DNA of 64,000 nt from Yuukianura sp. NJ FZ-2021 (GCA_046563655.1 CM102290.1:11098001-11162000); one strand, 5' to 3'; shown: positions 12 through 58,700, counted from the stretch's first letter. Translations and numbers: made by a program. Notes: generated by a model from the sequence alone, not told the origin.

Positions 12-3000
12 GGCTACTTTGTGTCGCTTTTCAACAGATTTGATTCCTTCGTCGTTGTGAGTTCAATTTTGGAACTGTGCCTCACGCGAACAAATATCAT
101 TCCTGCCATTGGAGTCTCCGTGCTTCGATGTGTTCGTCTACTACGTGTATTCAAAGTTACCAAGTAAGGCCATCCTACTCAATCGGGGTCATTGACCTGC
201 ACTAGGTGCTATTGACCTCCCTCCAGGCTAGGGTGATTGATTACATATAGAGAAACACCCCGAAACTGCAATTCGTCGTTGAGTTATTGGTAATTCGGGG
301 TGAATGAATTGTGTAAAACAAAATTTTTGAGGTCATTGACCTTTGAGGTTGTCAACTTACGTTTTGGCAGGTACTGGCGGTCGCTGTCGAACTTGGTGGC
401 CTCACTGCTCAATTCCATCCAATCCATTGCCTCACTTCTTCTTCTGCTCTTTCTTTTCATCGTTATTTTTGCTCTTCTTGGAATGCAAGTTTTTGGTGGG
501 AAATTTAATTTCAACAACGAAGACATCTACAGACAAAACTTTGACAGTTTTTGGCAAAGTCTTCTAACAGTTTTTCAGGTAAGTTTTATTTCCATTGTTT
601 TCAACATTCCACAAGTATTTTTGTTTTCTGCGACTCTTCTTGTAAAAAAAAAAACTTGAATTTCCAATTTTTCAAATTGAACTGTAAAGTTGTCTACTTT
701 TTTTAAAAAAGCAATCCAAAGTTGAACTATCAAGAAGCGCCATTTGAAACTAGGTTTGGTGAAAACTATTATGATAAAATTTACCAAATCATTTGCTTTA
801 TTGACAGCATTTTTGTTATTCGTTTGGTATTGTACCAATGCGTACATTAGGAAGCCATAATGTTAGGCTAAGTTTAGACTTTTAACGTTTAGTTGCTAGC
901 TGTCCAGAAGTTTACCGCTGTCTCCAAAGGATAATGGGATCCTTAGTTCTCAAGAAGTATTTACGCTTCTTAGGAGTAAGTTTTTGCTTACGTTTCTTCC
1001 TCTCAAACGCCTCTCTGTAGTAAGCCATTCGGACTTCTCGATCCTCATCTACCGACGGAGCTGACTCCGAAGACGAAGACGAACCAGTCCGTCGTCCCAC
1101 GAAGTCGTACACCATTTTCCGTTTCTTCCTTCGCATCATCAGTTCCTGTCGTTCCATTTCGTCTCGATATGCAACAGCTTCGGCTCCAAGACGTGCCAGT
1201 TCCTCAGCAGCATCTGCCTCCATTCGTTCACGGTAAACTTCTTCCTTCAGTTTCCGATGTGGATCCATTTCCATCATTTCCATCATTTGCTGAACAGTTT
1301 CTTCTTCCTTTTGAAGACGCGTCTTTTCATAGCGCTCGCCACCATCCAGCAGTGGCACGGCGGCCCACAACTCCGCATCCAGTTCCATATCTGACAAACT
1401 TTCGTCCAGCAGTTCCACCATTTCGTCATCCGGTTCAACGTAGGTCTCGTACGGCTCCAGCAGATTCCGTACCTCTTCGGGTTCACTCTCACTGCTATGT
1501 CGACGGAACAGGAGCGGAACGCGGTAGAAAACGTCGCGGTAGATTTCGTTGTAGGCGTCTTTGTCGTTAAAGCGAATGCGCTCTCTCCACGTGACCATCC
1601 AAGTAATGATGACTTTGCGACCGTAAACGTTTACTGATGGGTAGAGTTTTGGAAGGCCCCAGAGGATAGGCGTTCCCATGAGAAGCCCAAGGCAGAAGAA
1701 GTAGATCGTATGAAGAGCGAAGACAAGGCAGAAAAAAACGAGCCAAATAAGAATGGCGCAGCGAATGTAGTCGTAGTGTGAATCAGCATGGATTATCTTG
1801 TGGTACTTGATTACTGCGGCGTCCTCTTCCAGCTGAAGTCGGTTCCAGAAGTCAAAGTCATTGAGGTATATGGACCATTCCGACCAGTCCAACCCGGAAA
1901 CATAAAATCCTGGATTACTAGGGTCATCGGGTTCATCTATAAGTAGTTCCTGCAGAGACAGATCTCGTGTTACGAAGCACGTTTGGAAGTCCTGGAAGAC
2001 TAAGAATGGGAACATCTTCATGTTGCTTGTTGTGTAGTACCATTCCCTGTTATTACAAAAAAAGAGTTAATCAAAATTTTGCGTTATGTTTCAAATTTAA
2101 AACGTACCAAAAATTCGCGCCAAGGACAGTTTTAGATTACGTTTCTTTGTACTTACGACTCCCAATAACGTTCATTGCTGTTAATTTCGCCTGCTCTAGA
2201 GGGAGCAGGAAACATGTAGAATCCAAGGACAAGCAAAAGCATGGGCCATGGCCAGGCTGTGACCGTGAATCGGTCAGTGGCGCGAAAAAGTGGAGTCATA
2301 TTTATGTTTGACCTCTTGACCTCTTTCGTGAAAAAAAAATCACTGTTCCTGCTTGGAGTTGAAATTGTTCAAAGAATTTACACAGTGGTTGAGAAAATTG
2401 TGAAGACTGAATCATTTTTGTTTGAAAAGTTTCCAAATACATTTGGATTGAAAGTAAAAATAGCATTATAGCAAGTTGGGTGGCATGACGAAATTACAAA
2501 AACATAAAATAAAAATTAAAAAAAAACTCGGAATTTTGAAGCATAACAAATTAAAAATTTTCCTTTGTAGATCTTGACGGGTGAAGACTGGAACGCTGTG
2601 ATGTATCAAGGGATTCAGGCGTACGGCGGTGTTGGTTCCATTGGGATTCTCGCCTGCGTGTACTTCATTATCCTATTCATCTGCGGAAACTGTAAGTTCG
2701 CGACGCCAAACCGCAAAATTTCGTGAAAATTCGATGTGATCCCAAATTTCTTACAGATATCCTGCTCAACGTCTTCTTGGCTATCGCTGTTGACAATTTG
2801 GCTGACGCGGAGTCTCTGACGGCTATCGAAAAGGAAGATGAAGGCGGAGAGGTTAGTCAATTTTGTGGAAGTTTTGAATGTCACGAAAGGTGATTTATCC
2901 TGGTCACTCTTTAGGGTGAAAGTGGTGTTGGAGGAGAGAGAGTCACAACTGTAGTTGAACATGGAGAAGACGAAGATCTACAGAACAACACCGATGACAA

Positions 3001-55711: not shown

Positions 55712-58700
55712 CTACGAAGTTTTTGTTTTATTAGTTTTGAATGAGACTTGAAGAACACGGTTGCCAAGGGTGTAGCCGTTGAGAGACTGAATGGCGACCA
55801 CTGCCTCTTCGTAGTTGGTCATCGTCACAAAACCGAAGCCCTTACACTTGTTAGTCTGAAGGTCACGGATTACTTTGACGCTTTGAACTGCTCCAAACGG
55901 TCCAAAAAGTTGCCACAAAACGTTTTCTTCCGTCTCTGGTGCCAAGTTGTAGACAAAAATGCACCAGCCTGCTCCGTTCATTGCATTTCCTGGAATGACT
56001 GTGTTGGCAAGAAGGTCACCCGCCAGCGGAGAGTACCTGCAAATGACACAAGACAGAACACACACATAGGCATGAGTGGTCAGTGACCTTTGACCTTGAG
56101 GGATCTCGGGGGAGGGCTCAGGAGGAGGCAGTTACGTAAAAACTACGGTAGCCGGGGGTCTACGGGTGAGCTACGGGGGAGTTACGGGGTTTCATCCCAT
56201 TGGCGGGAAAGAAATTTCAAAATAATGCAGGACCAAACCCAAAAATCGTTGTTCTGAGAATATTACTGACCTCTGCAACCCTTTGTTTATGGCCAGCATG
56301 GCCTTGCCAGTGCTAAAAATAAACAGAGAAACAAAGAAAAGCAAAGTAAGAACCAAACATAAAGAGTAATAATAACAATCATAATAATAATCATAAGTCC
56401 AAGTTAAGTTCAACAAGGGAACACAAAGGAGGCAGTTTCAAATTTTTGTAAACGTCAATCCAAGAAAAATGGCGGCGTTGAAGTGAGCTAAGAGCACCAC
56501 CATTGTAACCACCATATTCGCAATTCCAATACTAAACTTTTGTTACCGTCGAAGTAGTAATACATAACGTTAAGAGTAATGACATTTACGTAACTCTACA
56601 GGAAAAAACGGGTGTAACTTTTCTCATGAAGATAAACCACGTGATTTACGTAATTACATCACATAACGTTTGCCGTATTTTCTCGCGTATAATATTCTTT
56701 TTAAAAAAAAATCGAGAAAAATTTCGAATGTTACTTCTTTCAAATTTTTTTGGGAATATTTTAAATCTGAGGCAAAACAACAACGTAGTTTTAGGTTAGG
56801 CTGACAGTCACGTTTATGAATAATAGTTTCACCATTACGCATAAACGCGGCATGTGGAAAACTTGTACAGACGTTAAACATGAAATGGAAATTTGCTTTT
56901 GAGTTACAAAGTAGTGTAACATGCGTATTGACAACAATGATATGAAGATTTGTTAAATGAGTTAATACTGCGTGGTTACAACGGTGGCGTACCCAGCTAA
57001 CTTCAACGGAAAAGCCGAGAGAACGAGAGAAAGAGTTGAAAGAGTAACCGAAATTTCGAAATTAAAAGGACTCTTTTTCCTTGAAATTTTGGAAAGAGGA
57101 GATAGGGGACTCTGTTGAGGAGGGGTTACGAGGTCAACTGAGGGATGAGAGGTCAATTTAGGTTAGATGATCTGAGATGGGTGGACACAGTGGGGTGGTG
57201 TCAGGGGGAGATGAGCTGCCCCTGAGCTCACCTGGAAAGTGGAGAAAGGGGTATGTACCGCAGTCGGCCAGTGGCATGGTGGATGGGTCCTCCGAAGCGA
57301 CGTGCTGCCGCGGCTGCTTGCGGAGCTGCTAGATAAGCTGCTAGCGGCGGAAGCGCTTTGGAGTTGCTGCTGGGGTTGTTGGCGAACTTGACGGTGACTG
57401 GCTCCGTGGAGCCCTTCGGAATGGTTCCATTCAGTTCCTGGATAGCACGCTCCGCTTCCACGCGCTGATCAAACCGGATGAACCCCACGCCCTTCGAGAG
57501 TCCTGTCCCATCAGCATAAAGAAAACAAAAGGAGACATAAAACATAAACTCAGTTCAGATACATAGGTCAGACGGGGTCAAACCCCCGGCTTCTGTCAAA
57601 GTCAAGCGTCACTGTTACAATTGCACCGGTCATTCGGTTTTCGAGTCCATCTCTACATTTATCGGTGTTCAACCGCCAAAACTCAAAATCAGATTCAATT
57701 TTTGAAATTAGCAGAGGACTAAAAAGCGTCTGTCAAGGGTTTTCGTAAAAACGTTTCCTAATGTTTTCTTAAAAAACGTTTATACGAAAGTAGTACTTGT
57801 TTTGCAGAAGTATTAAATGTTGAAATGACATTTTTACTAGTACAATTCGGTTTGGTTTTTGAACCGACAAATGTTGTTTCCGGTACGGCAAACCGGTATT
57901 TCAGTTTTTGTCCAGAATGACGAAGACACTCACCGGTAATGTTGTCGCAGAGAATGCGGGAAGTTATGATTCGACCGAATGGAGTAAAGAGGGACTCCAG
58001 TTCTTGTTGTGCCATGTTCTTTGGGAGACCGCTCACGTACAGATTGGCTCCCTTGATCGCTTCACTGCTTGGCCGAGCATAGGACACCTAGATACATTCA
58101 AGTTAGGTTAACTTCAATTCAGAATTAGGAAATTAGCCTAACAGTGTCCAATCTACAAGTAATTAAACAAATTAACACAACAAACAACAAAATATCTTCT
58201 TTAGTGTGCTGAAAGTCATTCATCATCTCCAAGCTTCGGCGACCCGCATCGTTTTTGGCTCGAAATTTGAGCCGATTTTGTCTCATAGTTTTTCTTTTTG
58301 AAATAAACTGCTGGCTGGCTTGTCACTGCTGTCATCATATCCACCACCAGCCAAGTGCGTATGGCAGTAGCGCGGGAGATTTTAAAAATTCAAAAAAATC
58401 TGAGCGCTGGAAAGTTTGCGTTACCTTTATTGTTTTGTTCTGAAGCCGAAGACCATTGAGAGTGTTGATGGCCTTTTCGGCGTCTTCTGCTCGATGGTAA
58501 TTTACAAATCCGTAGCCAAGACTCTGACCAGAAACCATTGAAGCATCTAAAATCAAGAAATAGTTTTGAAATTTCAAAATTTTTTAAATATTTTTTGAAA
58601 ACTTCGTTTTTACCCGTGACTTTGTCTCTGATGAGTTTGCATGACTCCACTTCTCCGATTGACGAGAAAAGTGAGCGTATCTCCTCCTGCGTCATCGTTT

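Follow-up and report, generated by a model that had tools for sequence, protein, structure and literature searches.

As a rule, response elements of nuclear receptors are rare and degenerate and belong to particular target genes. Here we describe 21 paired half-sites of the RGGTCA type in a 64-kb stretch of DNA from Yuukianura sp. NJ FZ-2021 (GCA_046563655.1 CM102290.1:11098001-11162000; hereafter the window, to which all counts refer), arranged as inverted repeats with a spacer of one nucleotide (IR1) or as direct repeats with spacers of one, two or four nucleotides (DR1, DR2 and DR4). DR1 elements with an A spacer are bound by RXR/USP homodimers, HNF4, COUP-TF/Svp and TR2/TR4 (Hr78). The known ones are target-gene enhancers with a degenerate upstream half-site, whereas in the 64 kb of the window nine perfect 12-mer cores are distributed over housekeeping as well as neural genes. 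The copies have the exact consensus AGGTCA-A-AGGTCA, a string found in HNF4 and PPAR papers. For the inverted pairs, the closest described system is the EcR-USP element, whose idealised form (IR-1, 'PAL1') likewise consists of two inverted AGGTCA half-sites around a 1-bp spacer, 13 bp in all. Symmetric IR-1 has a higher affinity for Usp/EcR, both as DNA-binding domains and as full-length complex, than the natural hsp27 element; the same study terms the perfect IR-1 'non-natural', and in the hsp27 element 5 of 15 positions break the symmetry (PMC1885670). EcR-bound full motifs in Drosophila are 13-bp inverted repeats (PMC6525475), and among the gene sets of Daphnia only moult-related ones show an enrichment of the EcR/USP inverted repeat (PMC5569996). 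Unlike these elements, the IR1 of the window have a perfect 11-mer core in six of seven cases, occur about once per 9 kb and are mixed with DR1 and DR2. A preliminary description of the window had regarded the density as unlike that of ordinary hormone enhancers. It is indeed far higher, with seven perfect IR1 in 64 kb as compared to 4,967 EcR peaks genome-wide in the Drosophila wing (PMC6525475).

IR1 (RGGTCA-n-TGACCY) starts at positions 186, 330, 20848, 23294, 49715, 51096 and 55574, and DR1 (RGGTCA-n-RGGTCA, either strand) at 9512, 28408, 36141, 37128, 39570, 50593 and 56084. Two near-matches to DR1, at 3222 and 46262, read CGGTCAAAGGTCA and differ in the outermost base alone. As they keep the core, the 12-mer GGTCAAAGGTCA is present in nine copies, compared to a mean of 0.01 in dinucleotide shuffles. 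DR2 was detected at 2309, 37954, 41359 and 51103, in each case as RGGTCA-AG-RGGTCA, and DR4 at 24755 and 57565. All coordinates given in the preliminary description were recovered; the second DR4 was not listed there. All 21 sites thus consist of two RGGTCA-type hexamers, with C at the outer position 1 in two of the DR1.

The dinucleotide shuffles contained on average 0.01 DR1 and 0.00 DR2, and IR1 did not match in any of the 100. Two or more copies of any tested pattern (IR1, DR1, GGTCAAAGGTCA or DR2) were not reached in a single shuffle. Furthermore, RGGTCA pairs were simulated with Markov models for spacings of 0 to 15 in three orientations. The seven observed DR1 compare to 0.01 copies under the order-3 and 0.145 under the order-5 model, the seven IR1 to 0.015 and 0.065, and the four DR2 to 0.015 and 0.115. 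The excess of pairs proposed earlier stands within the window against both models. The GC content of about 36% assumed at that time has to be corrected to 39.2%. Single half-sites are in excess as well (112 RGGTCA hexamers versus about 50 expected), and the order-5 model by itself yields this hexamer excess (111.9 half-sites). Everted pairs were not enriched, with 0 or 1 per spacing between 0 and 15. The remaining direct spacings have 0 to 2 pairs each, 13 in sum, which is above background, too. The excess of pairs is largely confined to the receptor-dimer geometries DR1, IR1 and DR2, plus two DR4. Eukaryotic Cav1 loci from metagenomes, 505,826 bases in total, served as a control with real DNA. 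These contain 321 half-sites, yet no DR1, no IR1 and no DR2, and neither the DR1 core nor the IR1 core occurs in any of the 80 metagenome loci found with a Cav1 exon. An origin by chance or as a by-product of local base composition is hardly conceivable, as no shuffle contained two copies, the order-5 model predicts at most 0.15 copies per geometry and 506 kb of real eukaryotic DNA are devoid of all three.

The specificity for this word became apparent from unbiased word counts. The most frequent 12-mer of the window is GGTCAAAGGTCA (nine copies) and the most frequent 13-mer is AGGTCAAAGGTCA; GGTCATTGACC has six copies. The other top words are AT-rich low-complexity strings. Similarly, a scan of all hexamers as DR0-5 and IR0-5 revealed AGGTCA as the only top word that is not rich in AT. 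Spacers are almost invariant: A in nine of nine DR1 cores, AG in four of four DR2, and T or A in six of seven IR1, the exception being a G at 23294 within the coding sequence of CerS. Compared to AGGTCAAAGGTCA, five perfect, six one-mismatch and eleven two-mismatch copies were counted, while 0, 0.13 and 1.97 were expected. Four of the six one-mismatch DR1 copies are changed at hexamer position 1. Among IR1, three copies are perfect and four have one mismatch, located at the outer R/Y position in three cases and in the spacer in one. The GGTCA core is altered in two of these ten one-mismatch copies. Variation is therefore tolerated at those positions at which half-sites of receptors are degenerate.

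Scattered receptor sites of a single lineage have a precedent in the HNF4 sites and DR2 elements of primates, which reportedly occur in large numbers in introns and intergenic DNA (PMC3252374) but ride on a recognisable repeat, Alu. The 21 sites of the window, in contrast, have neither common flanks nor a repeat family. An all-against-all BLAST of the 200 nt on either side of each site, with the elements masked, revealed no shared flanks; apart from 186 and 330, whose flanks physically overlap, the only match was one of 13 nt with an E-value of 0.04. The repeat finder returned no family covering any site, the tandem-repeat finder no array at the sites, and target-site duplications are not visible at them. 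A search of the window for Rfam families and tRNAs did not give a match, either. The absence of a carrier repeat, as stated in the preliminary description, is thus borne out, and sites borne by a transposon within a shared repeat consensus are ruled out by the flank BLAST and the repeat finder. Formation of DR1 by tandem duplication of seven bases was considered as well and rejected, since the base following the element is not consistently A and target-site duplications are missing.

The combination of three dimer geometries, fixed spacers, limited variation, mixed strand usage and lack of a carrier points to recognition by nuclear-receptor-type dimers and to selection on the cores. The correspondence to the geometries of nuclear-receptor dimers that had been suggested earlier is exact. 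The reading that we tentatively prefer, at somewhat less than an even chance, is that the sites are selected, high-affinity candidate DNA sites for a dimeric protein of the nuclear-receptor type, either USP/RXR with its partners or Svp, HNF4 or Hr78. Lineage-specific selection would then have gained and kept the sites. Each DNA-binding domain of the receptor would read one RGGTCA hexamer, the dimer interface would set the allowed geometry (DR1, DR2 or IR1), and contacts beyond the hexamer would set the spacer base. Most likely, DR1 and DR2 would be bound by USP homodimers or orphan receptors (Svp/COUP-TF, HNF4 or Hr78) and IR1 by EcR-USP. From the features above we infer protein binding, the identity of the binder and a regulation of transcription or chromatin by binding. 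The sites might also serve in chromatin organisation or receptor tethering, or as part of the genome-wide mark that the preliminary description proposed. Receptors with two DNA-binding domains (2DBD-NRs) were considered as binders, too, and rejected because the Schistosoma proteins gave no gel-shift binding to AGGTCA repeats (PMC1810520).

Several observations weigh against selected sites for a nuclear-receptor-type dimer. With one site per about 3 kb, the window is far denser than known hormone-receptor regulons. Almost all copies are perfect (nine perfect 12-mer cores, two with an internal mismatch), and this scarcity of degenerate copies is unfavourable since binding sites born by point mutation normally give a broad range of affinities. 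Extra lone half-sites do not accumulate around the pairs (9 within 100 nt versus 7.2 at random positions of the window), so that homotypic clustering is not evident by this measure. Moreover, no pair at spacings of 0 to 8 is present in 40 kb from four relatives (L001, L034, L035 and L036; see below). Finally, the closeness of five of the seven intronic sites to exon edges is not predicted by a pure enhancer model.

Concerning its significance, the occurrence of perfect IR1, DR1 and DR2 as the most over-represented words without a transposon suggests either a receptor that directly controls a very large regulon or acts in genome architecture, or a novel process that seeds exact short motifs. 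A full-text search of literature that includes few subscription journals returned no account of such a dense carrier-free excess.

The four relatives are metagenome contigs with the orthologous Cav1 locus, probably from springtail-like hexapods related to the host, and are the nearest ones by protein identity (L001 95%, L034 90%, L035 88% and L036 86%). In none of them does the closest match to either element have fewer than two mismatches. L001 by itself comprises 7.5 kb, in which about 2.5 sites would be expected at the density of the window, so that its zero is only weakly informative. The place in L001 that aligns to the DR1 at 9512, next to the micro-exon 9559-9603, lacks this element. 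L001 and L036 have no sites in their orthologous Cav1 introns, which can no longer be aligned. As the nearest relatives lack the sites, the excess is not a general property of these hexapods, and the feature is probably lineage-specific at most. Judged from these comparisons, the sites look like a lineage-specific, unusually dense layer of putative protein-binding DNA.

The absence from all four relatives, orthologous introns included, would also be expected if bare 12-14-mers had been copied or inserted in one lineage without selection, for instance by an ultra-short mobile unit, as excision footprints or through templated repair insertions, and if the likeness to receptor sites were incidental or secondary. 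The almost uniformly perfect copies, the identical spacers and the very high density without a conserved context speak for such a process. However, DR1, DR2 and IR1 of one hexamer cannot derive from a single unit, neither target-site duplications nor a common flank are visible, and a mechanism that moves 13-nt units is not known. Neutral decay would also spread differences evenly, whereas they gather at hexamer position 1 and the spacer. We consider this explanation unlikely.

Sequencing reads allowed a comparison at shorter distance, with two (X5 and X1) of five DNA runs from two studies. Run X5 represents a close relative that differs by about 3% in non-coding and by less than 1% in coding pieces. 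Runs X5 and X1 differ from window positions 36100-56099 at 396 positions; none of 40 of these hits a paired site, but with about 0.3 hits expected this number is too small to bear on conservation. In one contig of run X1 (record 2, 38872-39619), the only difference is located at 39330 and the DR1 at 39570 is intact. Another one (record 6, 49311-50703) has two differences, one of which, at 50143, disrupts a lone half-site. A further X1 contig, at 41344-41906, spans the DR2 at 41359. Over about 490 nt, 42 letters and 21 gap positions set it apart from the window, which points to a haplotype of strong divergence or to a paralogue upstream of the zinc-finger gene.

The host of the window is an arthropod. 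The Cav1 exon shares 80-85% identity with proteins of insects, springtails and scorpions, and a read contig ends in TTAGG repeats (see below). A FastTree phylogeny of 526 Cav1 columns groups the window with the metagenome contig L001 (support 1.0), and this pair is sister to a clade of the springtail Orchesella and L034-L036 (SH-like support 0.895), outside the insects. On the basis of this one gene, the host may tentatively be placed next to the springtails. Springtail-like hexapods moult throughout life. If the host is one of them, a link of the sites to ecdysteroid signalling would gain interest.

The sites are distributed over the window at about one per 3 kb and over at least eight genes of unrelated function. 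Nineteen of the 21 are non-coding; the two coding ones are those at 23294 and 46262. Five sites are located in Cav1 introns and two in ELAV introns, with the remainder in intergenic DNA, upstream of genes or in 3' regions. The flanks are somewhat richer in GC (0.435, compared to 0.391 at random places; P 0.004). This and the predominance of non-coding sites are in line with binding sites of the receptor type.

Both IR1 at the start of the window, GGGTCATTGACCT (186..198) and AGGTCATTGACCT (330..342), lie in the Cav1 intron 165-359, the former 22 nt past the 5' splice site and the latter 17 nt ahead of the 3' splice site, with the exon beginning at 360. A long Cav1 intron carries the DR2 AGGTCAAGAGGTCA on the minus strand (2309..2322), about 240 nt upstream of a nested antisense open reading frame (ORF; 912-2066). 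The DR1 core at 3222..3234 (plus strand, CGGTCAAAGGTCA, with C at position 1) is located about 25 nt ahead of a putative 3' splice site, and the DR1 GGGTCAAAGGTCA at 9512..9524 (minus strand) 34 nt ahead of the conserved micro-exon; both are in Cav1 introns.

Outside Cav1, the IR1 AGGTCATTGACCT at 20848..20860 is intergenic, between a WD40-repeat gene and the 3' end of CerS. In the same gap, 58 nt upstream of this IR1, the palindrome GCGCATGCGC was detected at 20781-20790; it presumably resembles the NRF-1/Ewg promoter motif. The IR1 AGGTCAGTGACCT at 23294..23306 is the only one with a G spacer. As the preliminary description had noted, it falls into CerS coding sequence, namely the N-terminal coding exon on the minus strand, where it reads PEVTDL. 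The DR4 AGGTCAagtgAGGTCA (24755..24770, minus strand) is located between the divergent genes CerS (minus strand) and Sld5 (plus strand). Between the exons of Sld5 and the receptor tyrosine phosphatase (PTPR), the DR1 AGGTCAAAGGTCA (28408..28420, plus strand) is followed by CGTG, which results in AGGTCACGTG. This fusion of a half-site to the E-box-like CACGTG occurs twice (28415-28424 and 39726-39735), and AGGTCACG is additionally found at 9512 (minus strand), 41367 and 49736. Non-coding DNA without annotation contains the DR1 AGGTCAAAGGTCA at 36141..36153 (plus strand) and GGGTCAAAGGTCA at 37128..37140 (minus strand). The DR2 AGGTCAAGGGGTCA at 37954..37967 (minus strand) has a third half-site at 37976. 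At 39570..39582 (plus strand), the DR1 again reads AGGTCAAAGGTCA.

The DR2 AGGTCAAGAGGTCA at 41359..41372 (plus strand) lies about 575 nt upstream of the first ATG in the ORF of the zinc-finger gene, and the DR1 core at 46262..46274 (plus strand, C at position 1) in a conserved C-terminal coding exon of this gene. The IR1 AGGTCATTGACCC at 49715..49727 is accompanied by a single AGGTCA 21 nt off on each side (49694 and 49736). Preceded by GGGTCA at spacing 0, the DR1 AGGTCAAAGGTCA at 50593..50605 (minus strand) forms part of three direct half-sites. Three half-sites in all are also present at 51096..51116, where the IR1 AGGTCAATGACCC overlaps the DR2 AGGTCAAGGGGTCA of the minus strand. In ELAV, the IR1 AGGTCATTGACCT at 55574..55586 lies about 130 nt beyond the stop codon in the putative 3' untranslated region, with two more half-sites just upstream. 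The ELAV introns hold the DR1 AGGTCAAAGGTCA at 56084..56096 (minus strand, sense to the transcript), 46 nt ahead of the 3' splice site of the last exon, and the DR4 AGGTCAgacgGGGTCA at 57565..57580 (plus strand), about 62 nt ahead of a 3' splice site.

Such a distribution, with sites in promoters, introns and 3' regions of at least eight unrelated genes, could also result from a lineage-specific factor outside the nuclear receptors, such as an insulator or architectural protein with zinc fingers, whose motif coincides by accident with RGGTCA dimers and whose sites would mark domain or loop anchors. The high information content and the small number of weak copies would be in line with architectural motifs. 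Carrier-free dispersed motifs are known from the CTCF sites of vertebrates and the motif upstream of C. elegans 21U-RNA genes. Like the sites of the window, these are short, information-rich and dense and have no carrier repeat, but they differ in the motif and in the presumed binder. Zinc fingers in a tandem array read a single asymmetric sequence, whereas one hexamer in direct and inverted orientation with defined spacers is the hallmark of dimers of nuclear-receptor DNA-binding domains. This geometry counts against a non-receptor factor, to which we assign only a small chance.

Five of the seven intronic sites (186, 330, 3222, 9512 and 56084) are within 50 nt of an exon edge, a threshold chosen post hoc. 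About 20% of the Cav1 intron bases are that close to an exon, which corresponds to a post hoc P of about 0.005. Furthermore, the 195-nt intron 165-359 has one IR1 close to each end. These positions would fit intronic signals next to splice sites that act at the RNA level or during co-transcriptional splicing, with palindromes that might pair with each other. However, the orientation of DR1 relative to the host transcript is mixed rather than fixed, with 3222 and 56084 in sense and 9512 in antisense direction, and this is what a DNA signal would show. In the predicted minimum-free-energy fold of intron 165-359, the two IR1 pair with other segments and not with each other. In addition, many of the sites lie between genes or upstream of them (e.g. 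20848, 24755 and 41359), an Rfam match is missing, and the distance threshold was picked after the data had been seen. The intronic RNA signal offered in the preliminary description is therefore unsupported by the DR1 orientation and the fold, and we regard a function in RNA as improbable.

Uniform perfection and closeness to exon edges could both be accounted for if a receptor had been co-opted as an architectural or exon-proximal factor. In this hexapod lineage, perfect dimer sites of the USP/RXR type (DR1-A, DR2-AG and IR1-T/A) would then number tens of thousands and form a layer without a carrier throughout the genome that marks chromatin or gene architecture, instead of being classical hormone enhancers. 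It may be speculated that such a layer exists, but we think it rather unlikely.

The window encodes the calcium channel Cav1 (6-10380, plus strand), a WD40-repeat gene (about 11-20.3 kb, minus strand), the ceramide synthase CerS (21.9-23.4 kb, minus strand), Sld5 (about 25.3 kb, plus strand), PTPR (29.2-33.4 kb, plus strand), an Arf-family GTPase (34.2-34.8 kb, minus strand), a large C2H2 zinc-finger gene (41.9-46.3 kb, plus strand) and ELAV (55.7-59.3 kb and beyond, minus strand). The zinc-finger protein has matches only at about 30% identity. Near position 46080, one of the X1 read contigs departs from the sequence of the window and runs into repeats of TTAGG, the telomere-type unit of arthropods. 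The antisense ORF at 912-2066 (minus strand) encodes 384 amino acids without a Pfam match inside the Cav1 intron 582-2570 and may represent a nested gene. L001 retains the single 795-nt Cav1 exon of the window. It also shares the 45-nt micro-exon 9559-9603 with its splice sites (85% identity over 55 nt), while the surrounding intron is unalignable. At 5026-6590, within the long Cav1 intron, a unit of 318 bp is tandemly repeated in 4.4 copies at 96% identity, together with partial copies and internal inverted repeats.

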